Positions 15,906 to 57,358 of a stretch of DNA of 57,932 bases are shown in pieces. Source of the DNA: a virus. Taxonomy: Duplodnaviria; Caudoviricetes. The stretch spans positions 1 through 57,932 of IMG/VR virus record IMGVR_UViG_3300027772_000031; one strand, written 5' to 3'. A program made the translations under genes and the position numbers. The notes beneath the pieces are model-generated. The model saw nothing but the letters and a program-made list of their open reading frames with translations. It ran no database searches and had not been told where the DNA came from. Within the stretch, counting starts at the first letter, position 1, and each line of letters begins with the position of its first letter.

Positions 15906-16235
15906 TTAATGAAAACTATCTCCACAAGCGCATGAGCCTTGTGCATTAGGATTATCTATTGTAAAGCCCTGCTTCTCTATTGTATCTACAAAGTCTAGGT
16001 TCGAGCCCTGTAAATAAGGATCCGACATTCTATCTAATCTAAGATCAAAGCCTTCAAAGGGATAGATTACATCGCCCTCTTTTTCTTCATAGTCAAAGTA
16101 GGTTTGATATTTAAGTCCAGAGCATCCTCCAGGTTGAACAGATACACGTAGGAATTGAGGTCGTCCAGGTGTAGCTATCTGAGAGTCTTTTATCAGCTCT
16201 GCCACTTTCTTTACTGCATTATTGCTTAATATCAT
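15906..16235 (-). CDS. erpA: HesB/IscA/ErpA Fe-S cluster carrier
   Basis: GGCSG and C-terminal NPNAQGSCACGDSF. Confidence 0.93.
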   Translation of the reverse strand: MILSNNAVKKVAELIKDSQIATPGRPQFLRVSVQPGGCSGLKYQTYFDYEEKEGDVIYPFEGFDLRLDRMSDPYLQGSNLDFVDTIEKQGFTIDNPNAQGSCACGDSFH

Positions 16236-46866: not shown

Positions 46867-48681
46867 TTATACCAGCTGGGTGTCTAAATATCTGACTGAA
46901 TAGGCTGTATTGTCTTCTCCAGATACGCTTTCGGATAGGCTTATGCCTGGGTCAGACACAGCTTGTATATTATTTGAGCAATAAAGGTTATAGTTTTCTA
47001 TTGCCTCTGTCTGAGTAAAAGCACTTGGGTAGAGCGCTATGTTGCTGTATGTATTATTAAGTCCGTATTGAGTACCAGCCTGATTTTGATTAAATTTAAT
47101 GTTAGTAGAATTGCTTGATAGGACCAATACAACATGATGGAAAAGACCTGTTGTAAAAAAGGTTGATATGTTAGTGCTAGAAGTTACATCCACTCCATTT
47201 ACATATACCGCAGATATACCAGAAGATTGAACTACTCCAAGACTAGTCCATTTAAAATCTGAGGTATTTGATGAAAACAATATATTGCTGGTTCCGTTTG
47301 GCTTAAAAAATAACTCAATTGTTCTTGATGCATTTGTGGTGTCTACAGAAAACCCACGTCCGTCGGTCATTGTTAATCCATTATAGGAGTTTTGTGATTT
47401 TACTGGGTAGTTATAATTACCCAAAGAATAGTCGTGGGCAGAATAAATTCTTGAGCCCCCATTATCTGAATAAAAATCTTTATTGGAGTACATGTCAATT
47501 TCTAATTTATCAAAATACGGAAGATCAAAAGAGGCGTCTGCGGTTGTCATTGTAACTCGTATATCTAAAATGCTGCTTTGTAAATTTTGATTCTTATTGT
47601 AATATGGAAGCGGAGAATTGTTGTTGCAAGCTACCCACGGCTGGCCTGGGACTTGAACTTCTACTAGTATGTTTTTTACATCTTGCCCATAAGATATGGT
47701 AGAAGATTGTATATTTTGTGGATTACTTACATAAATTCTATCTGTAAACGAAAATGTTTTTGACTCAACGCCCACAGATTCTTTAAAATATATTCTATTA
47801 TTTATCGAGTCATAATATGTGTCATCTGTTAATAGGTCTTCAAAATTTTTAATCCCAGGATATCTGTAAGATACATCTGGCCGTATTGTCACAGAATTTA
47901 ATGAAAAGAATACTCCATTTTTTGGATAAACAATTTGAGAGTATTTTCTTTCTTTATACCCAGACACATAATGAGATCTGACCCTAGACTCTTCAATTTC
48001 ATAATTGTAAAAAGCAACCCCATCAATGATAAAATTTTTATTTATATTAGACGGACCAATTGCTGGTGAGAAAATTGTATTTGTAAATTTAAATTTATTG
48101 GAAAATGTTTTTTCTTTTACCAGGGATCCATTTAAGTACAAGCTAATTTTGTCTTTTGAAAAAACTCCGACTGCATGTATTACTTGATTTTTAGATATCT
48201 TGTAATTGACATAATTTAGAGCATCAACCTTAAAAACAACATTTTCGTTTTTATAAAAAATTCCAATTTGATTAGATGAATCTGCAACTATTGGATATTC
48301 TAAAATATCTGTAGGGTCTGGTTTAAACCAAGCCTCCACGGAAAAAGCGCTATCTGGGTTTTTGTTTGTCGCTATTCCTAGTGCCTTTAACTTAATATTA
48401 GAGGTTGATTCAATAAGGGTTCCTCTTACCCCACTATTAATTATGGGCATTAGCTGCATTGATGAGGATTGTATTGCATATCCGTCTGAACCATTTCCAG
48501 AATAATCAATAATTGGTAGACCGCTGATTGCTGCATAAGATACACCATTGTCTTTTAAATCTTGGTAAGTGCTATAGGTATTTTTTAATACTGTATAATT
48601 AGTTACTTCACCAGATTTTACTTCATCTAGAAGGTAAAAGGATAGAGGATAGTCTTGCAAGACAGTATACTTATATGACAT
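46867..48681 (-). CDS. LamG/concanavalin-A-like virion protein
   Basis: PLSFYLLDE...DYSGNG...FSVEAWFK...HAVGVF...LYLNG...IDGVAFY, with a second LamG-like unit at the C-terminus. Confidence 0.78.
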   Translation of the reverse strand: MSYKYTVLQDYPLSFYLLDEVKSGEVTNYTVLKNTYSTYQDLKDNGVSYAAISGLPIIDYSGNGSDGYAIQSSSMQLMPIINSGVRGTLIESTSNIKLKALGIATNKNPDSAFSVEAWFKPDPTDILEYPIVADSSNQIGIFYKNENVVFKVDALNYVNYKISKNQVIHAVGVFSKDKISLYLNGSLVKEKTFSNKFKFTNTIFSPAIGPSNINKNFIIDGVAFYNYEIEESRVRSHYVSGYKERKYSQIVYPKNGVFFSLNSVTIRPDVSYRYPGIKNFEDLLTDDTYYDSINNRIYFKESVGVESKTFSFTDRIYVSNPQNIQSSTISYGQDVKNILVEVQVPGQPWVACNNNSPLPYYNKNQNLQSSILDIRVTMTTADASFDLPYFDKLEIDMYSNKDFYSDNGGSRIYSAHDYSLGNYNYPVKSQNSYNGLTMTDGRGFSVDTTNASRTIELFFKPNGTSNILFSSNTSDFKWTSLGVVQSSGISAVYVNGVDVTSSTNISTFFTTGLFHHVVLVLSSNSTNIKFNQNQAGTQYGLNNTYSNIALYPSAFTQTEAIENYNLYCSNNIQAVSDPGISLSESVSGEDNTAYSVRYLDTQLV

Positions 48682-48684
48682 GTC

Positions 48685-49785
48685 TTACGCCTCTTCTAGT
48701 GTTTTAACTCTCGCCGTAAGCTCTTGCACTGCCTTAATGAGCGGAGCAATAAACTCTTCATATCGTAATGCTTGTTCTGATTCTGGATTGGATTTATCTA
48801 TTAGTACCCAGCCACCAAAATCTACTCCTGAATTTTCTAATGCTTGTTTAACTTCTTGTGATATTAAGCCCCAATGTGTTCGTGTTCCTGCAATTGAATC
48901 TCCTTCTGGAGTTACAGATCCTTCAATAAATTTATAACTTACTGGCCTTAAATCATTAATAAAATTTAAACCTAAAGATGAATCCAATATATCAGTTTTT
49001 AGTCTTAAATCAGATGTGCTAATTGTTCCTGTATTAGAATAAATTGTTTTCCAGAATTTATTTGAAGAAACTCCACTTGGCACATCGGCTGGTTGTCCAA
49101 TTGAATATAAATTGTTTGCTAGCGGATACCAGTTTGAATTTACTCCGTATGCAGATGAAGTGGGAATGTTTAATGATATTGTCCCAGGTATCGGATCAAT
49201 AATTGGTGTATCTCCTGCTGGGCCTGGTACTCCCTGCGCTCCATTTGCTCCAGTTGCTCCTCTTGGAATTGTAAAAGCAAATACTGCATCTGTAGAAGTA
49301 CCAGTATTTGTAACTAAAGCATTTGTTCCAGCCGCACCAGTAGTGGTAGTTCCAATTGCAAGTGTTGTAGGTCCTGCTGGCCCTTGTGCTCCTGTTACTC
49401 CTTGGGGTCCTGCTGGTAAAACTAAATTTAAAGTTTGAGATGGGCTAGTTCCAGAAATTGTAGCTGCTGCGGAGGATCCGCTTGTGACTGATCCTATTGA
49501 TAAAATATTTGAAGGACCCGCTCCACCTACAACTCCATCGATTCCTCTTGGTAAAGTTAAATTAAGAATTGCGGCAGATGATGTTCCTACATTTGTAACG
49601 GCTGCTGGAGTAGAAGCGCTTACCGTGGAAATAGTTCCTATAGTAATTGTTCCTGATGGCCCCTGTGGCCCTGGATGGGCGTCTAAGTAGGCATCTACGT
49701 CTGCTGCCAGATAAGCTAGATCTCTCGGTACGTCTGGGGTATCTGAGTAGACGGGGTATCTAAAACCTTTTCCTGTTGTAGTCAT
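48685..49785 (-). CDS. Collagen-like fibre with C-terminal peptidase S74 chaperone
   Basis: Gly-X-Y runs (GPQGPSG, GPQGVTGAQGPAGP, GATGANGAQGVPGPAG); SDLRLKTDI...GLISQEV...LRYEEFIAPLIKAVQEL. Confidence 0.88.
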   Translation of the reverse strand: MTTTGKGFRYPVYSDTPDVPRDLAYLAADVDAYLDAHPGPQGPSGTITIGTISTVSASTPAAVTNVGTSSAAILNLTLPRGIDGVVGGAGPSNILSIGSVTSGSSAAATISGTSPSQTLNLVLPAGPQGVTGAQGPAGPTTLAIGTTTTGAAGTNALVTNTGTSTDAVFAFTIPRGATGANGAQGVPGPAGDTPIIDPIPGTISLNIPTSSAYGVNSNWYPLANNLYSIGQPADVPSGVSSNKFWKTIYSNTGTISTSDLRLKTDILDSSLGLNFINDLRPVSYKFIEGSVTPEGDSIAGTRTHWGLISQEVKQALENSGVDFGGWVLIDKSNPESEQALRYEEFIAPLIKAVQELTARVKTLEEA

Positions 49786-49805: not shown

Positions 49806-50459
49806 TTATTTAGAGTATATATGAGCTGGGCTCATCCATCTAGTACCGCTTGTTATTTTTGTAACCTCATGAATATACGGCTCTTGAGATGGGAAAATAA
49901 TTATACTACCAGCCTTGGGCTTAATGCTAATATTTTGATTTTTAAAGCTAATCTCCCCTCCTTCGTAATCATCATTAATATATGCAACTAGCGAAAACGC
50001 AAGAGCATTATGCCCATCTTGTCCATCAAAATGAGGACCCATTGATTGACCAGAATTCCATTTTTTTATTAAAATGCCTTTAAGGTTTAGCGAATAATTT
50101 TCTTTATTTAATCCATTTAATTTTATGTATCTATCTGCACACATTTCAAATGCCGTTTCAAACTCATTAGATATATATAGAACTTTTTTATCAATTAAGC
50201 TAATAGTTTTAGTTGATTTAACAACATGAGTATCAATTTTTTTAGTTGCTCCATAAACTAAAGATTTATCATCACTTGCCGTCCATGGCTCCCACTTAGA
50301 TATTCTATTGTAAGACTCTGGCTGATCATCAATATACTCTATATGACTTTTTAATTCAGATGGAAAACTTAATGCATTTTCAAAATAAAAAATTTTATCT
50401 TGTTGTATCTTTAATTTAAACATATGAAATTGCTCAAAGCCAACATCATTGCTATTCAT
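49806..50459 (-). CDS. 2OG-Fe(II) oxygenase, prolyl 4-hydroxylase-like
   Basis: PHFD...YINDDYEGGEI...HEV...GTRW. Confidence 0.92.
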   Translation of the reverse strand: MNSNDVGFEQFHMFKLKIQQDKIFYFENALSFPSELKSHIEYIDDQPESYNRISKWEPWTASDDKSLVYGATKKIDTHVVKSTKTISLIDKKVLYISNEFETAFEMCADRYIKLNGLNKENYSLNLKGILIKKWNSGQSMGPHFDGQDGHNALAFSLVAYINDDYEGGEISFKNQNISIKPKAGSIIIFPSQEPYIHEVTKITSGTRWMSPAHIYSK

Positions 50460-51216
50460 TTATATCCTCTACTTCAGAAGCTGGGTATAATTCTGATCTT
50501 GGAGTTTGTCTTAAACCTTTGTCTCTTATTTCGTTCCACTCTTTTTGTTCAATTTTTTGTTTATCCCTAACTTCTTGAAGCTCAATTGCCCATTGATCTC
50601 TTAGTTCTTGAGGATAGTCTGACTCTTCTCTATCATCCCAGAAAGATCCTAGAGTATATCTAACTTTCTTTTTAACTACAGTAACTTCATGCATATTTTG
50701 AAATCCCCCAGCAAAAGTAGCGAGTAGTCCAACTTTTGGAACAATGGTTAAATCAGTCTTTGTAAAATTTAATACCCCGCCTTCAAAATCATCATTTAGA
50801 TAAATAAAGGTTGCGTATCTACTTCTAGTAAACGCTCCCGCAACTCCGTCGTTACTTGTATTATCTGAGTGAGGGTGTGCAAATGCACCTGGCTCCCATC
50901 TTTGTGAATGAAAGCTAATTCTAGACATTTGTTTTGGATCTTTTCCAGCCATGTCGGCTGTAGCAACAATAACTCTTTCTTTTAGACTATCAAAGAAATC
51001 TCCTGGTAGGCCACAGGCAATTACATCTGCATCGTTTAGTTCTGGCATTCTTCCCGAAGAAGATTCATAAAAAGAAATTTGTTTCCAGTCCCACTCGCCT
51101 TTGTTTTCTTTTATTTTTATAACCTTTAAAATAGATTCGCACTCATCTTTAGTTAAAAAGTTTTCATGAGTAACAATATCGTCACGATGCCTTGTTATTA
51201 CTATTTCTTTATTCAT
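50452..51216 (-). CDS. 2OG-Fe(II) oxygenase, prolyl 4-hydroxylase-like
   Basis: PHSD...YLNDDFEGG...HEV...RYT. Confidence 0.92.
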   Translation of the reverse strand: MNKEIVITRHRDDIVTHENFLTKDECESILKVIKIKENKGEWDWKQISFYESSSGRMPELNDADVIACGLPGDFFDSLKERVIVATADMAGKDPKQMSRISFHSQRWEPGAFAHPHSDNTSNDGVAGAFTRSRYATFIYLNDDFEGGVLNFTKTDLTIVPKVGLLATFAGGFQNMHEVTVVKKKVRYTLGSFWDDREESDYPQELRDQWAIELQEVRDKQKIEQKEWNEIRDKGLRQTPRSELYPASEVEDINE

Positions 51217-51219
51217 ATA

Positions 51220-52050
51220 TCACATACTTCCTTCTTTATACGGATTATCTTTTCTTGATTTATATGTATCAAAATCTACTGGGGCATCGTCTACTAAATA
51301 AACCATATTTCTAGGATTATCGTATGAAAGTCTTTCTACTTCTTTTTTAAACCAGTTGTGAGCTCCAAATTTTTTTTGTGCCGCTAGCCATTCTGGGCTT
51401 CCGTCATATGAAACCATAACAAAATTTCTAACAAAGAATTTCTCTTTTTCTTTAATAATTTTAACACCATGAAAATATGGAACGTTTGAAGGAAATACCA
51501 GGATGTCTCCTGCTACTGGTTTATGGTTAATTAATTTACCATCAACATAAAACTCAATATCTCCTCCGTCATAATCATCATTAATATACATGGTACAAGT
51601 TATAAAAAATTTACTTCCTGGCATATCTTTTTCTGAAATGATATAGTCTGTATGGTATTGCATGGTCATATTATTTGCCATGCTGTCTACATTTGGATTA
51701 TACTTAGAGTATGAGCATCCACTAAATACCCAATCTGGTGGCAAAACAATACCTTGTTTTTGAATATAATCTGCTATAACCTTGTCATAAGCGTTTTCTA
51801 CTTCTTCAATAAAATTCTTTTCTTTAATGAACATCGGGTCAGTTAACAAATCTTTAGGATAATTTGATGGATGCTTTTTTTGAGTATATGTCCCAAAATG
51901 TGCCCACGGATCCCACTTGCTTAAAGCATACTTTCCTTCAGATGTTTTTTCTGATTCATTCATTACTTCATACATTTGTTTAGGGTCTTTTAATACGTTA
52001 CGATATACATAAATTTTTGGAAAAATTTCTACATATTCTAATTCACTCAT
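51220..52050 (-). CDS. 2OG-Fe(II) oxygenase, prolyl 4-hydroxylase-like
   Basis: YHTD...YINDDYDGGDI...HGV...KFF. Start moved to ATG 52050 (ATGA overlap). Confidence 0.9.
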   Translation of the reverse strand: MSELEYVEIFPKIYVYRNVLKDPKQMYEVMNESEKTSEGKYALSKWDPWAHFGTYTQKKHPSNYPKDLLTDPMFIKEKNFIEEVENAYDKVIADYIQKQGIVLPPDWVFSGCSYSKYNPNVDSMANNMTMQYHTDYIISEKDMPGSKFFITCTMYINDDYDGGDIEFYVDGKLINHKPVAGDILVFPSNVPYFHGVKIIKEKEKFFVRNFVMVSYDGSPEWLAAQKKFGAHNWFKKEVERLSYDNPRNMVYLVDDAPVDFDTYKSRKDNPYKEGSM

Positions 52051-52724
52051 GGCTGTTTTTCTCCCGTATGTTTTTGAATCGTCCAAAAAAATGGCGACGT
52101 AAATCTATTTCCTGATTTTATTGGTCTTACGCCATGCGTATAATACATGTCTCCAGGGAAGAAGTATGCTGCTCCAGCTACTGGTTTAAATTCAATTCCG
52201 TGTTGCGGGAAATATAACTCCCCCCCCTCGTAGTCATCGTTAAAATAAAACAATCCCGCAAGGTCGTACCACGGAAAATCATTTGCTCTGCCTTTTTCTG
52301 ATCCAGAATGGAATTCTTTATCTGCATGAGGTTCTTGTCTTGCACCAACTGGCCACCTTACAATTGCTGGCCCAGTTTCTTTTGCATCTACATCAAAAAA
52401 TTTATCTACTTCTATTTTTAATCTTGCAATCATACTATATATTAAATCTAAAATAGTGGGATCAGACGCCATTAAAGATCTATAAGTACAAACTCTATTC
52501 TCCCATACGGTATGGTCATACAAAACAAGTCCGTCTGCATCTCTATGGGTTTCTGTGATATCCCAGATTTTATTGTTTAATGAAAAATTCATTAATCTAT
52601 CAATTTCTTCTTGAGTTAAAAAATTTTTGATTTCTATAATGTTATCTATTGAATTGCCAAAAAACCCAGAGGGGGTTATTGACTTGGGTCTATTATCTCC
52701 CCAGTCATTAGCTATTTTTTGCAT
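52047..52724 (-). CDS. 2OG-Fe(II) oxygenase, prolyl 4-hydroxylase-like
   Basis: PHAD...YFNDDYEGGEL...HGV...GNRFT. Confidence 0.92.
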   Translation of the reverse strand: MQKIANDWGDNRPKSITPSGFFGNSIDNIIEIKNFLTQEEIDRLMNFSLNNKIWDITETHRDADGLVLYDHTVWENRVCTYRSLMASDPTILDLIYSMIARLKIEVDKFFDVDAKETGPAIVRWPVGARQEPHADKEFHSGSEKGRANDFPWYDLAGLFYFNDDYEGGELYFPQHGIEFKPVAGAAYFFPGDMYYTHGVRPIKSGNRFTSPFFWTIQKHTGEKQP

Positions 52725-52750
52725 GTTGTCACCATATCCTCATTTTACCA

Positions 52751-53452
52751 TTATTCAAGACTATTGACAAACAGTCTTATAGTTTTAACCTGATGGCTCC
52801 CGATGCTTTCTTTTTTGTGGTCTACGGCATCTCTATAAAAATTAGACCATACTCCGCTTGAATTAAGTTTACTAATTTCACTTGAATACTCTGATTCATT
52901 ATAGGGTGCTTTTGGCAATGTTTCTAAATTTTTAAAATTAATTTCAGAATTTTGCAAATCATTTAAATTAATAGGAATCATACTTGTAATTGGAGTACCA
53001 GCTTTAATTGTTATTATTTCATTTGGTTTAGTTATCATCCACGCTACGGGAATGTCAGTCGGAAAAAATGAACTGCTGATTATGGTTGTAAATGGAGTAG
53101 CGCCATCAAAAAATAAGTTAGGAACTGGCATGCAAAGCATACTAATAGATTCGCTTGTAACCAGCCTTACCCCTGTTTTGAAACTTATGGTTGCGTTTGC
53201 CCTTCCAGCATAGGCATATTTTTCTCCAGACAATATCTTTACGTGCTCAGCATTGCTGTCATTAATTCCATCCCAAATAAAAGATATATCTTCTGGAAAA
53301 GAAATTGACCATCCTAATTGATTTGTTAATCCTACGGGGAAACATTTATAAGCATGAGACTCCCACGTATTGTCCATCCAGTCTCTTTTAATAGTTAAAG
53401 GCTTGACAATTCCTAAACCTTGTTGTATTTGATAGGCATCAACTTTATACAT
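52751..53452 (-). CDS. DUF6065-like protein
   Basis: KRDWMDNT...HAYKCFPVGLTNQLGW motif and C-terminal W...YRDA. Confidence 0.75.
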   Translation of the reverse strand: MYKVDAYQIQQGLGIVKPLTIKRDWMDNTWESHAYKCFPVGLTNQLGWSISFPEDISFIWDGINDSNAEHVKILSGEKYAYAGRANATISFKTGVRLVTSESISMLCMPVPNLFFDGATPFTTIISSSFFPTDIPVAWMITKPNEIITIKAGTPITSMIPINLNDLQNSEINFKNLETLPKAPYNESEYSSEISKLNSSGVWSNFYRDAVDHKKESIGSHQVKTIRLFVNSLE

Positions 53453-54158
53453 TCAAGTTTCTACCAGTTAGAGAATCTTCTTTTACCCACTTAAGTCTCA
53501 TTTCATAAAACTCTTGTCTATGAGCATGATCATTATAATCTAACATAGTTACTATTGAAAATTTCATTCCTGATTTTACTGGCATAGCTCTATGAGAGAA
53601 TAGATAGGTTGATGGGAAAATATATAAATCTCCTGCTGTAGCCTTAATGTTTAAATTAAGCTTTGGAAAATATAGTTCTCCGCCTTCGTAATCATCGTTT
53701 ACATATGCCACTAGTGAGACGGTGGCGCTGTAAGAAAATCCATGATCTGCATGCTCTTGAAAGTGTTGTCCTTCACCGTATCTGATACAGTTCATAACTT
53801 CCCAATAATTCATCTTTACGCTGTACATTTGACAGTAATCTTTTACTGCGGCATCTTGTGATTTTTTTAAATCTTCCCATAAAGATGAAACTAATTGTTC
53901 TGTTTTTGTGTTTGGATTTTTTATTTCACCAACCTTTATATCTTCACAGTTCCTATAATCTGGTATTTTTTCGCTATAGCCAACAAATCCAAAGGTCCAT
54001 TTATACCTTGTATCGCCTTCGGCTTCGGCTGACTCACCTATTTTGTTTAATTGCTCTATAACAGATATGTCTTTTTTAATTGCATTTCTATACACCCAGA
54101 CACCTGGGAATAGTTGCTCTTTTGAGGTAAATCCGTATTGATCATCAATATTATTCAT
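53445..54158 (-). CDS. 2OG-Fe(II) oxygenase, prolyl 4-hydroxylase-like
   Basis: EHAD...YVNDDYEGGEL...HRA...GMKFS. Confidence 0.92.
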   Translation of the reverse strand: MNNIDDQYGFTSKEQLFPGVWVYRNAIKKDISVIEQLNKIGESAEAEGDTRYKWTFGFVGYSEKIPDYRNCEDIKVGEIKNPNTKTEQLVSSLWEDLKKSQDAAVKDYCQMYSVKMNYWEVMNCIRYGEGQHFQEHADHGFSYSATVSLVAYVNDDYEGGELYFPKLNLNIKATAGDLYIFPSTYLFSHRAMPVKSGMKFSIVTMLDYNDHAHRQEFYEMRLKWVKEDSLTGRNLNV

Positions 54159-54212: not shown

Positions 54213-55442
54213 TTAAGCTATTGTTAATGTCGAGTTAACAATGAACCAAGGGTTTCCTTCTGTTCGAATGTCATAAACAGCTGATTCATTTTCATCAATT
54301 TCTATAGATGTAACGGCTGTTTCAGTAATTCTAGCATCTGGTCCAATACCTATCAATATGTCTCCTGCTTGGATTTCTCCTGCATTTTTGTAGGCAATTC
54401 CATTTGAAACTTTAATAAATACTGGGTGCTCTGCTGAGAAATTTTTACCTAGGTTATTAAATCCTACTAACTTAGACATTTTAGATTCTACAGACTTAAC
54501 AAATGTTTCTACAAACATTACTGAGCCAGTAAGTGGGTGAGAAGTTTTAGTCTCAGTTATAGATTTAAGATCTATAAACTCACTGCTAATTGTAATTAAA
54601 ACATCTCCTACTGAAACATCTTTGGCTTTTATCCAGCCGTTTGATGCGTAAACTAATGAGTCTGGTGCTAAACACTTACCCTTAAATCCTGGTGGGGCAA
54701 AGAACCCTGGTGGGGCAAAGAACCCTGGTGGGGCAAAGAACCCTGGTGGCGCAAAGAAGCTTGGTGGCGCAAAGAAGCTTGGTGGGGCAAAGAAGCTTGG
54801 TGGGGCAAAGAAGCTTGGTGGAAAGAATGGTGCTGCTGTTGTTACTGAATTAGAGATTGATGAGGCAGCTGAGTTACCATTAGCATTTGTTGCATAAACT
54901 GTATAGGTTTGAGCAGTATCTTGTTCTTGCGTAACAGTTACGGAAAGAGCATTGAGGGTTCCGCCCTTTGAATCTGATGATGCCCAAGTATAATTAGTAA
55001 TTGCAGATCCGCCGTTTTCTGGTGCAACCCAAGTAACAACATCTTGAAGAGTTCCTGCTACAGCTGTTGGTGCTGCTGGAATTTGTGGAACTGTAGTTAT
55101 AGTTGGTGATGTAACTGCGGCTGATGCTAAAGAGTTGCCGTATGAGTTAGTTGCAATAACAGTAATATCTGAAGTTATGTTTGAACCAAATCCTGTTATT
55201 GTTAAGGGAGAAGCATTTCCTGTGGCTGTATGAGTTACAGAGTGTACACTGCAATAACCAGATGCTGTATAGCTAGTTGCTACTGGTGAGTTTCCAGGCA
55301 ATGTAAATGCAACAGTTACCTGTCCATTTCCAAATGCTCGGTTTGTTCCATCGCTAGTAACGCCTGTGATTGTTGGTGCTAAAGGCTCTAAAAAGTCGTT
55401 AGCGGCCTGTGAGTGTTTTCCTGCTTTTTTACCTGATGCCAT
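54213..55442 (-). CDS. FN3-like domains + (PP[S/G]FFA) repeats + C-terminal Hint autoprocessing domain
   Basis: Two FN3-like units (VTWVAPENGGSAITNY...YTVYATNANGNS); repeat tract; Hint block A CLAPDSLV (Cys257), block B SAEHPVF, block F VYDI, C-terminal WFIVN. Confidence 0.85.
   Translation of the reverse strand: MASGKKAGKHSQAANDFLEPLAPTITGVTSDGTNRAFGNGQVTVAFTLPGNSPVATSYTASGYCSVHSVTHTATGNASPLTITGFGSNITSDITVIATNSYGNSLASAAVTSPTITTVPQIPAAPTAVAGTLQDVVTWVAPENGGSAITNYTWASSDSKGGTLNALSVTVTQEQDTAQTYTVYATNANGNSAASSISNSVTTAAPFFPPSFFAPPSFFAPPSFFAPPSFFAPPGFFAPPGFFAPPGFFAPPGFKGKCLAPDSLVYASNGWIKAKDVSVGDVLITISSEFIDLKSITETKTSHPLTGSVMFVETFVKSVESKMSKLVGFNNLGKNFSAEHPVFIKVSNGIAYKNAGEIQAGDILIGIGPDARITETAVTSIEIDENESAVYDIRTEGNPWFIVNSTLTIA
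54685..54830 (-). repeat. 18-bp coding tandem repeat, about 8 units
   Basis: CCACCA[AGC/GGG]TTCTTTGC[C/G], encoding 4x PPSFFA, 3x PPGFFA and a final PPGF. Confidence 0.97.
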
Positions 55443-55483: not shown

Positions 55484-57358
55484 TTACGCTTTAAGATCTC
55501 CATAAACAACCCAGGTGTTTGCTGCTCTCTTAAATAGAGTACATGATGACCACTGTGTTCTTAATTTTAATCCTGGTGTTGAGTTAACAGTAACAGATCC
55601 ACTAACTGGTGCAATAGATACTTCTCCCGCACCTGTCTGAAGAACATCTAAAGAAGTTCCTATTGGATAGTTGACTGTTGAGTCTTCTGGAATCGAAATT
55701 ACGCAACCATAGGCTGAATTTACTTCGATTAAATCGTCTCTTTCAGTTAGTGATGAAAGTGTATAAGATGTTGTCTTTTGTGAAATTGGTGTTAAAGAAT
55801 CTACCTTTAATCCAAGGCTAGTTGTTACTGATGCTGCAAAGTTAGCGTCATCGCCAAGGGCTGCAGCAAGTTCATCAAGTGTATCTAATGCTGCTGGTGC
55901 ACCAGTTAATAATGCGCTAACTTGTGCTGTTGCATCTGCGATTGCTTCTGCTTTTGCAGTTGCGATTGCTGAAGACTGTGCGGTAGATACTGGCTTATTA
56001 GCATCTGATGTATTTGTAACGTTACCTAATCCAAGAGTTGCGGCTGTTACTGCAGCAACCTCTGACTTAAGTGCAAGTAATGATGTATCAGATATGCCGT
56101 GTACGTTTGTTGATGTTGTATTGTGAGTAGTTAAATCAGTAGTTTTTGCTGTTAACTGAGTTTGTACTGAGGAAGTGGTTCCATTCAAATAACTAAGCTC
56201 TGTAGCAGACACATCTCCAATTGAAGTTGTGGCTGGAAGAACTACGGTTCCTGTGAATGTTGGTGCCTCAATTTTTGCAAATCCATCAATGTTTGCACCA
56301 TTTGGAATTGTTACTGTTCCTGTAAATGTTGGTGAGTTAATTGTAGACTTAAGACTTAAATCTGTAACCAGACCATAAATTTTGCTTTGAGCAATTTCTG
56401 CATCTGATGCAATTTTATTATTATTAATAATTCCATCTGTGACATGTGTTCTTATCAAGAAATTAGATGGTGCTGTCAATGAGCTTGCCTCTATTGGTCC
56501 ACTAATTGCTGCAGAAGATACTAATCCTGCTGTATTTATTGAACCAGATGTAGTAAGTGCTGTTGCATTAATATTTGTAGCACCTAAATTCTTAACAGAA
56601 AGATCATCTAGTGTTCCTTGTGTAAAGTCAACTGTTGTTCCTGGCGCAGTAGTTACTCCCTTAAACAATTTCCACTTATTATCAGAAGTATCACGAACTA
56701 ATCCTGAATATTGTGCCGTTCCATCATTAAACTTTGCGTGGAATCCTAGATCTAGGGTGTTTCCAGCATTTGAATCTGCAAGTGCAATTATTGCATCTTC
56801 TGTAGTAAAGTTTGCTGTTGAGATACTTGTTGTAGTACCGTTAACTGTTAGGTTACCAGTAAGTGACAAATCTTTTGCACTAATATCACCTGATGTTGTA
56901 ATATTTTGAGTAAGTATATTTAGGTCTAATTCAGACTCTGGAATTTTGATGCTAGAATTTAATGATGCTACTCCGTTTTGTGTTCCACGATCTGCAACCT
57001 CTAGGTATGTGCTGGCTGTTGAATTTGAAAGTCCAGTTACCTGTGCATCTACGTATGACTTAAGAGCAACAACGGTGCTGTCTACTGTGATGGTAATTGT
57101 ATTTGAGCCGTCGTTGTAGGTCTTTGTTAAACCTGAGCCCATTGTAAGCGCTGTATTAATTGCGTCTTGTGAAATTTCACTAATTTCGGTTGAATCTGCT
57201 GCTATGTAAGAAAGGGAATTCCATGCGGTGGATCCGTCTCCAACTTTAATTTTTCTAGTGTCTGTTACAACGCCTAGCTCTCCTGCTGCAAGTACTGGGT
57301 TGACTCCAGACCAATCTGTTGCTGATCCTCGTCTGACTTGAATTCTTACTGTTGACAT
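55484..57358 (-). CDS. Fibre protein with Mtd-N/hyaluronidase-N-like N-terminus
   Basis: RIQVRRG...W...NPVLAAGELG..TDT...KVGDG...W..L.Y; SPTFTGTV repeats; APAALDTLDELAAALGDD. Confidence 0.85.
   Translation of the reverse strand: MSTVRIQVRRGSATDWSGVNPVLAAGELGVVTDTRKIKVGDGSTAWNSLSYIAADSTEISEISQDAINTALTMGSGLTKTYNDGSNTITITVDSTVVALKSYVDAQVTGLSNSTASTYLEVADRGTQNGVASLNSSIKIPESELDLNILTQNITTSGDISAKDLSLTGNLTVNGTTTSISTANFTTEDAIIALADSNAGNTLDLGFHAKFNDGTAQYSGLVRDTSDNKWKLFKGVTTAPGTTVDFTQGTLDDLSVKNLGATNINATALTTSGSINTAGLVSSAAISGPIEASSLTAPSNFLIRTHVTDGIINNNKIASDAEIAQSKIYGLVTDLSLKSTINSPTFTGTVTIPNGANIDGFAKIEAPTFTGTVVLPATTSIGDVSATELSYLNGTTSSVQTQLTAKTTDLTTHNTTSTNVHGISDTSLLALKSEVAAVTAATLGLGNVTNTSDANKPVSTAQSSAIATAKAEAIADATAQVSALLTGAPAALDTLDELAAALGDDANFAASVTTSLGLKVDSLTPISQKTTSYTLSSLTERDDLIEVNSAYGCVISIPEDSTVNYPIGTSLDVLQTGAGEVSIAPVSGSVTVNSTPGLKLRTQWSSCTLFKRAANTWVVYGDLKA

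Follow-up and report, generated by a model that had tools for sequence, protein, structure and literature searches.

What becomes of a phage protein that ends in an intein-like domain, when nothing lies behind that domain to be spliced? The question is raised by a gene on the minus strand of a 57,932-nucleotide virus sequence (Duplodnaviria; Caudoviricetes; IMG/VR record IMGVR_UViG_3300027772_000031), which we analysed as a whole and refer to as the window. The gene encodes a 409-amino-acid protein, here called the Hint protein, whose last 153 residues are predicted to adopt the Hint fold shared by inteins, bacterial intein-like (BIL) domains and Hedgehog autoprocessing domains. Its junction residues and its abrupt end point to a domain that would cut itself off the protein in front of it and could not splice. 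The features that carry this argument are the following (A2 denotes the family alignment introduced below).

54213..55442, minus strand: Hint-protein gene, 409 amino acids; N-terminal peptide, two FN3-like domains, Pro/Phe linker and C-terminal Hint domain (from the list of open reading frames and the translation)
54216..54674, minus strand: Hint domain, residues 257-409 (153 amino acids), predicted from AlphaFold2, Foldseek, profile match and dN/dS
54672..54677, minus strand: predicted scissile junction Lys256/Cys257, site of the N-S acyl shift; Cys in 46 of 47 covering rows
54426..54437, minus strand: block B, Ser336-Ala-Glu-His339, positions B:7 to B:10, from alignment to solved inteins
54267..54278, minus strand: block F, Val389-Tyr-Asp391-Ile (residues 389-392; Asp at F:4), from alignment to solved inteins
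54213..54221, minus strand: Ile408-Ala409 instead of the intein His-Asn, with the TAA stop directly after (stop 54213-54215), from alignment A2

The C-terminal domain is predicted to be a Hint fold

An initial annotation of this DNA had proposed a C-terminal Hint domain beginning at Cys257, and the sequence details on which it relied (GK/C257LAPDSLV, S336AEH339, V389YDI392 and the chain end with its stop) are all present where it had placed them. It had also named structure prediction of residues 257-409 as a check. Run on residues 245-409 with A2, AlphaFold2 predicted a Hint fold with a mean predicted local distance difference test score (pLDDT) of 94.3 and a predicted template modelling (TM) score (pTM) of 0.87. 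A Foldseek search of the PDB with this model gave 58 matches at E <= 0.001. Every one of the 50 listed is an intein, a BIL domain or a Hedgehog autoprocessing domain, and their TM scores by query are 0.34-0.69. Among them are TvoVMA (4o1s), Tetrahymena BIL2 (6y75), Npu DnaB (4o1r, TM by query 0.69), 2lwy (TM by target 0.80) and Hedgehog (1at0).

At the sequence level, the 70-row profile built from A2 found the Clostridium thermocellum BIL domain 2lwy (E 5.7e-11), in a match along almost the full domain, and also the KlbA intein 2jmz (E 2.4e-9) and further inteins. The single sequence scored 24.9 bits against Pfam Intein_splicing and 18.5 bits against PT-HINT (PF07591), below the respective cut-offs of 35.8 and 27.7, and in a single-query phmmer search of PDB sequences, E was 0.016 for the KlbA mini-intein and 0.039 for the Pho RadA intein. 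These phmmer alignments put SAEH under THDH of KlbA and TPSH of Pho RadA, and VYDI under the IYDL and VYDL of the solved inteins. PHROGs held no useful family for the Hint protein or its domain. As far as prediction allows, the Hint fold of residues 257-409 is established, and the annotation was right to place it there.

Junction residues leave only the N-terminal reaction

The residues of the N-terminal junction are kept: Cys257 (codon TGT at 54672-54674, preceded by ...PPGFKGK), Ser336 at B:7 (Thr in most inteins), His339 at B:10 and Asp391 at F:4. The annotation had named the Cys, the block B His and the block F Asp; the block B Ser and His and the block F Asp match the catalytic T-x-x-H and VYDL positions in solved mini-inteins. 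At the other end of the domain, the position of the KlbA block F His is occupied by Pro398, and Ile408-Ala409 fall under the His-Asn of sister-class relatives in A2. The chain closes with ...PWFIVNSTLTIA and the TAA stop at 54213-54215, and the gap to the next gene, which starts at 54158, is 54 nucleotides, so there is no C-extein. Translation, alignment and chain end thus agree that the terminal His-Asn and the C-extein are missing, as first noted. Blocks F and G themselves are present, with pLDDT of about 97 to the last residue.

Because the block F His is absent, Ile-Ala takes the place of His-Asn and the chain ends there, splicing and Asn-dependent C-terminal cleavage are excluded, and therefore only the N-S acyl shift and the resolution of the thioester remain. 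Of the proposal that the domain "can cleave but not splice", the absence of the splicing residues holds and the sequence permits the reading; the cleavage itself is a prediction.

Set against the known classes, the domain shows none of the C-terminal features of class 1 inteins, namely His at G:6, Asn at G:7, a C-extein, Cys/Ser/Thr at +1 and insertion in a host protein. Nor does it have the sterol-recognition region that follows the Hint part of Hedgehog Hog domains, since the chain ends at block G and PF01079 gives no match; pretoxin-HINT (PF07591) fits no better, with a score below the cut-off and nothing downstream. The terminal His-Asn with a non-nucleophilic +1 residue that marks type A BIL domains is absent from the 409-amino-acid protein and present in its sister class, and the type B pattern of N-junction motifs without an intein-type C-terminal motif fits, in a comparison made by published description. 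As described in the available parts of two articles (PMC4031507, PMC7765530), BIL domains lack a +1 nucleophile, and those of type B have no block G similarity and a cleavage uncoupled from splicing.

Judged by its sequence, the domain is neither an intein nor a Hedgehog Hog domain, but a BIL-like, cleavage-only Hint domain. The suggested resemblance to Hedgehog/BIL autoprocessors therefore divides: BIL domains are closest by sequence (2lwy), whereas the Hedgehog likeness is one of fold, without the sterol-recognition region. The lack of that region rules out a member of the Hedgehog family, and the presence of blocks F and G in the same chain rules out the N-fragment of a split intein. A decayed pseudogene is ruled out by the conserved Cys1 and by a ratio of nonsynonymous to synonymous substitution rates (dN/dS) of 0.135.

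The Hint family retains Cys1 and mostly replaces the block B histidine

The 153-residue domain was searched with exhaustive phmmer against 1.84 billion cluster representatives, which yielded 69 proteins at E <= 1e-3, 29 of them at <= 1e-10. Alignment A2 comprises 70 rows, made up of the query, 66 of these proteins and three from another search; P0048, P0070 and P0073 were left out as short or spurious matches. Of the 47 rows that extend to position 1, 46 have Cys there, and B:7 is Ser or Thr in 69 of 70 (Ser 63, Thr 6), while F:4 is more variable (Asp 34, Glu 11, other 25).

The rows fall into two main C-terminal classes, which can co-occur in a single phage (L031 has one copy of each). The non-His class, to which the Hint protein belongs, accounts for 40 of the 70 rows (endings IS 16, IA 13, VS 4 and others), and 39 of these 40 stop exactly at the position of the intein Asn, G:7. 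The sister class closes its Hint domain with His-Asn (27 rows) or His-x (3 rows), and 1-19 further residues follow. The +1 residue is Cys, Ser or Thr in only one of the 27 His-Asn rows; the other 26 lack such a nucleophile.

The block B histidine that the annotation had singled out is present in the 409-amino-acid protein, but it is not a family feature: B:10 is Gln in 52 rows, His in 15 and Glu in 3. According to the parts of PMC4031507 available to us, inteins conserve this residue more than any other, just two exceptions having been found by then, and its replacement is expected to cripple the N-S shift in inteins. With Gln at B:10 in 52 of 70 rows, the N-junction chemistry of the family as a whole is therefore non-canonical, and could be slow or in need of a cofactor or partner.

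A lysine near the junction is a further family trait. The motif [F/Y]K occurs within 8 residues upstream of Cys1 in 19 of 23 non-His rows (FKGK in the query) and in 0 of 19 His-Asn rows. In the His-Asn class, a Lys comes after the His-Asn instead, at +1 in 14, at +2 in 11 and at +3 in 2 of the 27 rows. Non-His rows also carry a basic residue at -1 in 13 of 23 cases and a K or R within six residues in 21 of 23. As a Hint domain brings its two termini together at the active site, two readings are possible on this sequence pattern: the lysine may be a catalytic helper, or both classes may yield a tether ending in a Lys-containing motif, the His-Asn class by ligation of the tail and the non-His class by cleavage.

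The Hint-ended design is common in environmental phages, and the family is large, with 412 viral stretches found. BFVD holds uncultured-phage proteins with automatic names such as 'Hint domain containing protein', and the protein atlas has many viral clusters with a C-terminal domain of Hint fold, one of them with Laminin_G_3; Pfam assigns PT-HINT to 4 of the 70 family members. A tblastn search of 50,697 phage records gave one weak FN3 match and nothing else. In 185,579 prokaryote genomes, a scan for the near-class pattern found nothing, and the His-Asn class pattern was found in one 8.8-kb contig (L039), binned to a Chitinophagaceae metagenome-assembled genome. It carries a collagen-like repeat protein and fibre-like open reading frames (ORFs) and appears to derive from a phage; its 688-amino-acid His-Asn-Lys Hint protein is followed 7 nucleotides downstream by a PF13640 oxygenase.

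The Hint domain is under selection and is an optional module

Substitution rates were compared with those in the closest phage, L001. The Hint domain is 80% identical between the two, with dN/dS 0.135; the second FN3 domain shares 52% amino-acid identity, with dN/dS 0.71, and neighbouring genes are 89-97% identical, with dN/dS 0.02-0.23. By these sequence measures, the Hint domain is under purifying selection and its passenger diversifies.

When residues 1-256 served as the query, 447 homologues of the FN3 part were found at E <= 1e-5. Among the 119 listed (P0002 left out), 83 have a complete Hint domain, 2 a partial one and 34 none. About seven of these 34 end in ...FR or ...FGR, and some of the 34 are perhaps frameshifted gene calls, as P0178 appears to be. 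A collection of 80 viral loci found from a Hint-less member provided 59 distinct complete orthologous ORFs, 35 with the Hint domain and 24 without, and three of the 24 end right after the linker in ...PFR or ...PR. Where checked, Hint-less and Hint-bearing ORFs alike have the next gene close behind and the Mtd_N fibre gene before them.

Hint-less proteins end in several ways: some close right after the tether with ...FR or ...FGR, some have a basic amphipathic tail or a Cys-rich knot, each of about 20 residues, and others have different short tails. Cys-rich knots (such as ...CRGSRPYPYCFCQGSIWAC) or basic tails (SSKRFK..I..V.NIK) close P0085, P0139, P0152, P0100 and P0143; P0092, P0095, P0099, P0121 and P0190. 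On sequence grounds, knot and basic tail are alternative ways in which one tethered FN3 protein closes at its C-terminus; the Hint domain, likewise, is an optional, swappable module at the tether end. The endings of Hint-bearing orthologues are varied as well, and include His-Asn/Lys, Ser1...His-Asp/Ser with a tail of 36-98 residues, Tyr-Ser, Phe-Asp, Tyr-Asp and others. Orthologues that combine Ser1, T/S-x-x-His, a terminal His-Asp, Ser at +1 and the 36-98-residue tail (P0102, P0104, P0144; L044-L046, L066, L067, L075, L080) may be genuine protein-splicing elements between tether and tail; the tail of P0102 has 46 residues.

The passenger is a two-domain FN3 protein with a Pro/Phe tether

The part of the protein that precedes the Hint domain is made up as follows.

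55377..55442, minus strand: conserved basic N-terminal peptide, residues 1-22, starting MASGKKAGKHSQAANDFLEP; from conservation in the orthologue alignment A4 and the model
55113..55376, minus strand: first FN3-like beta-sandwich, about residues 23-110; from the model, the family profile and Pfam fn3
54828..55091, minus strand: second FN3-like beta-sandwich, about residues 118-205, fast-evolving; from the model
54675..54827, minus strand: Pro/Phe-rich linker, residues 206-256, with PPSFFA/PPGFFA repeats, ending in the FKGK motif that forms the N-extein end

A full-length AlphaFold2 model, made with the 20-row alignment A4, has a mean pLDDT of 83.7 and contains two beta-sandwiches at about residues 20-110 and 120-205, both with pLDDT above 90. 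Moreover, the family profile matches titin FN3 (E 2.4e-17), and Pfam finds fn3 in 15 of the 70 family members and PASTA in 8, with other domains in further members. The "FN3-repeat moiety" of the annotation is thus borne out by the modelled sandwiches, the titin match and the fn3 assignments. In the N-terminal peptide, K5 and G8 are invariant and F17 and P20 are kept at 90% or more across the 20 orthologues of A4; residues 1-13 have pLDDT below 50 and are disordered in the monomer model. The segment is possibly a docking peptide.

Residues 210-254 of the linker are predicted to be disordered (pLDDT below 50). The tether is encoded by an 18-bp tandem repeat at 54688-54821 (7.4 copies, 96% match; PPxFFA), which may serve as a recombination site for swapping C-terminal modules. 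A stretch rich in Pro, Phe, Tyr and Trp precedes Cys1 in 42 of 44 full-length relatives, where these residues make up a mean fraction of 0.57-0.71 of the last 40 residues. Tether length varies among orthologues from about 40 to about 190 residues.

Proposed mechanism and alternatives

In the pathway that we propose, Cys257 would attack the carbonyl of Lys256 in an N-S acyl shift, assisted by Ser336, His339 and Asp391 as in inteins. The thioester would then be resolved mainly by water, releasing a Hint domain of about 17 kDa and leaving, as the mature virion-associated protein, the N-terminal peptide, the two FN3 domains and a Pro/Phe tether ending in ...PPGFKGK-COOH. No second step would follow, as the Asn-cyclisation residues are absent and nothing comes after the domain. 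Cleavage itself, water as the nucleophile and a place for the product in the virion are all inferred from the sequence. Such Cys257-dependent self-removal by thioester hydrolysis, with an FN3-tether protein ending ...FKGK left behind, has in our judgement slightly better than an even chance of being correct. Until folding, the domain may hold the very hydrophobic tether in a soluble or unassembled state; or else it may persist simply by removing itself.

The Hint-less orthologues bear on this choice. Some of them stop at a basic residue shortly behind the linker, ends that match the predicted cleavage product, and a Hint-free FN3-tether protein is therefore a viable mature form; since Hint-less orthologues are frequent, plain self-removal is favoured over obligatory ligation, lipidation or cyclisation. 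The annotation had left hydrolysis, attachment of a small molecule or lipid, cross-linking and cyclisation side by side, and the common Hint-less forms now tip that choice towards hydrolysis and away from the others as obligatory steps. Weighing against hydrolysis are the Gln at B:10 in 52 of 70 relatives (the query itself has His), and the strict chain end at G:7 together with the Lys-containing junction motif, which simple hydrolysis does not explain.

Alternatively, the thioester could be captured by a specific amine, such as a lysine of a virion protein (the neighbouring fibre, for example) or a host cell-wall amine, so that the FN3 adhesin would become covalently fixed through its tether without ATP, as with Tetrahymena BUBL BIL2 or, by analogy, sortase. 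We consider this unlikely. In its favour, in the available part of its description (PMC8616854), BUBL BIL2 makes a Lys isopeptide with the C-terminus of its N-flank, and its structure 6y75 is our second-ranked structural match (E 2.9e-7). The occurrence of the same linker and Hint cassette on many passengers (fn3 15, PASTA 8, a Laminin_G_3 cluster) would fit a generic anchor. Capture would also be in line with the junction-side lysine that the two classes share (upstream of Cys1 in 19 of 23 non-His rows, at +1 or +2 in 25 of 27 His-Asn rows) and with the place of the Hint gene behind an Mtd_N fibre gene, in the related loci with upstream sequence and in two loci of other lineages. However, with 24 of 59 orthologues Hint-less, covalent attachment is not essential. 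The long paralogues seem to carry an N-terminal region peculiar to them, so that a C-terminal anchor is not required, and the acceptors named here are candidates. A bolder version, in which the Hint domain would be an ATP-independent ligase-in-cis, fixing an FN3, PASTA or LamG adhesin through the Pro/Phe linker to a lysine of fibre or capsid or to a host peptidoglycan amine, seems to us somewhat less probable again. If true, it would make the system the phage equivalent of anchoring by sortase or of isopeptide conjugation as in BUBL, and the junction-proximal Lys and the free G:7 carboxylate would be part of that chemistry.

Lower still we place a Hint domain that is retained, without cleaving, as a distal structural or binding module in which Cys257 has another purpose. 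The Gln in place of His at B:10 in 52 of 70 relatives, a change expected to cripple the N-S shift in inteins (PMC4031507, in the parts available), speaks for such a module, and conservation at dN/dS 0.135 would equally be expected of a binding domain. It is hard to reconcile, however, with the Cys1 (46 of 47 rows) and the Ser/Thr at B:7 (69 of 70) of the family, which are difficult to explain without catalysis, or with the His339 and Asp391 that the 409-amino-acid protein keeps. Orthologues also manage without the domain, and the fast-evolving, presumably ligand-facing part of the protein is FN3 rather than Hint. Finally, the side-chain amine of Lys256 or Lys254 might attack the thioester and form a C-terminal lactam. 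Lys and Arg, when activated at a C-terminus, readily form lactams, and the basic residues near the junction in the non-His class (-1 in 13 of 23 rows, K/R within six residues in 21 of 23) would be suited to it. Yet the -1 residue is non-basic in the other 10 of these 23 rows, Hint-less orthologues end in an ordinary ...FR, and the literature on Hint domains, in the parts available, offered no precedent. We regard cyclisation, one of the options in the annotation, as by far the least credible outcome.

Genomic neighbourhood

Thioester hydrolysis, our preferred reading, concerns a gene that sits within a cluster of fibre genes and oxygenases. Its immediate neighbours are listed here.

55484..57358, minus strand: upstream tail-fibre gene, 624 amino acids, with an Mtd_N N-terminal domain (Pfam Mtd_N E 8.6e-16; PHROG tail-fibre families)
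53445..54158, minus strand: first of five downstream 2-oxoglutarate (2OG)-Fe(II) oxygenase paralogues, prolyl-4-hydroxylase-like (PF13640 E 8.9e-13; context only)

A search from a 12-row alignment gave 37 related viral loci, in which the gene order is kept: Mtd_N fibre, Hint protein, 2OG oxygenases, S74 fibre, LamG protein and portal. The Mtd_N fibre homologue lies upstream wherever these loci include upstream sequence, and also in two loci of other lineages. Many related phages have a second, longer Hint-ended paralogue (680-1142 residues, compared with 400-440 for the short one); L003, L005, L007, L010, L011, L013, L014, L016, L018-L020, L029 and L031 have two Hint ORFs each, and each paralogue follows a fibre-like gene where the upstream flank is present. 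In the window, a 366-amino-acid tail-fibre-like protein (48685-49785, minus strand) ends in a Peptidase_S74 intramolecular chaperone domain, a second, unrelated self-cleaving C-terminal module in the same fibre cluster, and a 604-amino-acid Laminin_G_3 protein (46867-48681, minus strand) adjoins the portal.

Downstream of the Hint gene, five PF13640 2OG-Fe(II) oxygenase paralogues and one DUF6065 gene stand in a row (49806-54158, minus strand). The best PDB matches of the oxygenases are prolyl 4-hydroxylases, from Bacillus anthracis (3itq, E 2.4e-6) and PBCV-1 (5c5t, E 0.0066). In the window's own lineage, where the loci are not independent, a profile built from the five paralogues, which may miss distant ones, placed a 2OG oxygenase directly after 22 of 30 distinct Hint ORFs. 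In the 80 loci of other lineages, one directly follows 4 of 35 Hint-bearing and 3 of 24 Hint-less orthologues, and lies within 2.5 kb of 5 of 35 and 15 of 24, respectively. That these enzymes hydroxylate the Pro-rich tether is speculative, the adjacency being strong in the window's lineage only. In L032-L035, the Hint ORF is followed after a 2-nucleotide gap by a TylF-like O-methyltransferase in place of an oxygenase.

The window, with an estimated completeness of 54%, also encodes a head protease, a major-capsid-like structural protein, a 2480-amino-acid ORF, a DNA polymerase, a helicase and a primase, together with a portal that shares 56% identity with those of Streptomyces phages. No host marker was found in the ten further window ORFs in which one was sought. 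A 109-amino-acid ORF (15906-16235, minus strand) matches the Fe-S cluster biosynthesis family PF01521 (E 1.1e-13) and may be an auxiliary metabolic gene.

Novelty and implications

Inteins, Hedgehog and a few bacterial BIL domains are the settings in which Hint chemistry has been studied well, and its use at the end of phage virion or adhesin proteins is undescribed in the literature that we searched. In that full-text search, which excluded subscription journals and supplementary files, no account of terminal Hint domains of phage structural proteins was found; the phage papers concerned inteins of terminase or ribonucleotide reductase (RNR). Terminal, cleavage-only Hint domains as such are already known, from Hedgehog and BIL proteins. 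What is new here is a phage-borne one with zero C-flank, its chain ending at G:7, with a preceding Pro/Phe tether and, mostly, Gln at B:10.

The family provides a natural series that runs from possibly splicing-competent elements through His-Asn with one Lys, then zero C-extein, to Hint-less proteins. Such a series can show how a splicing element decays to a pure cleavage module, and how an N-S acyl shift proceeds with Gln for His. If the proposed cleavage is true, it would add a post-translational maturation or attachment step to phage tail-fibre modules. For engineering, the domain would be a compact 153-residue tag that works without a C-extein and adds no scar residue at the C-terminus, and it could serve in thioester production.

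Comparison with known systems

Peptidase S74 (PF13884) of phage fibres and spikes is a functional analogy, being a C-terminal fibre domain that cuts itself off after assembly; its fold and chemistry are unrelated according to the Pfam family description, and the two are not homologous. Pretoxin-HINT (PF07591) likewise places a Hint domain in secreted or surface multidomain proteins and shares a weak Pfam similarity (18.5 bits) with the phage domain, but it lies upstream of a C-terminal toxin that it frees, whereas the phage Hint domain has nothing downstream.

Class 1 mini-inteins (KlbA 2jmz, Pho RadA 4e2u, Npu DnaB 4o1r) share the fold and the N-junction residues, in alignments spanning blocks B, F and G. 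The phage domain differs from them in having no C-extein, terminal Asn, penultimate His, block F His, homing endonuclease or conserved host insertion. Hedgehog Hog domains (1at0, 6tyy; TM by query 0.65) resemble it as C-terminal Hint domains in which a Cys1 thioester frees or activates the C-terminus of the passenger, but the phage domain lacks the sterol-recognition region and a PF01079 match, and nothing in it points to a lipid nucleophile. Tetrahymena BUBL BIL2 (6y75, 6tmm) is a BIL-type Hint domain of high structural rank that passes its N-flank to an amine; unlike the phage domain, it has His-Asn and a C-flanking ubiquitin-like domain with the acceptor Lys, as described in the available part of PMC8616854.

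The closest relatives are BIL domains, which provide the best PDB sequence match of the family profile (2lwy). They have in common with the phage domain the Hint fold, Cys1, the block B and F motifs and the lack of a +1 nucleophile, with cleavage expected over splicing, and they too reside in variable, surface or adhesin-type proteins rather than at conserved enzyme sites. Types A and B reportedly go back to Amitai et al. 2003 and Dassa et al. 2004. Type A keeps the His-Asn that the 409-amino-acid protein lacks and its sister class has, and type B reportedly shows no block G similarity but has a C-flank, whereas the phage Hint domain keeps a hydrophobic block G strand and has zero C-flank. The phage host, the Pro/Phe repeat tether before the domain and the Gln at B:10 in most relatives further set it apart from BIL domains.

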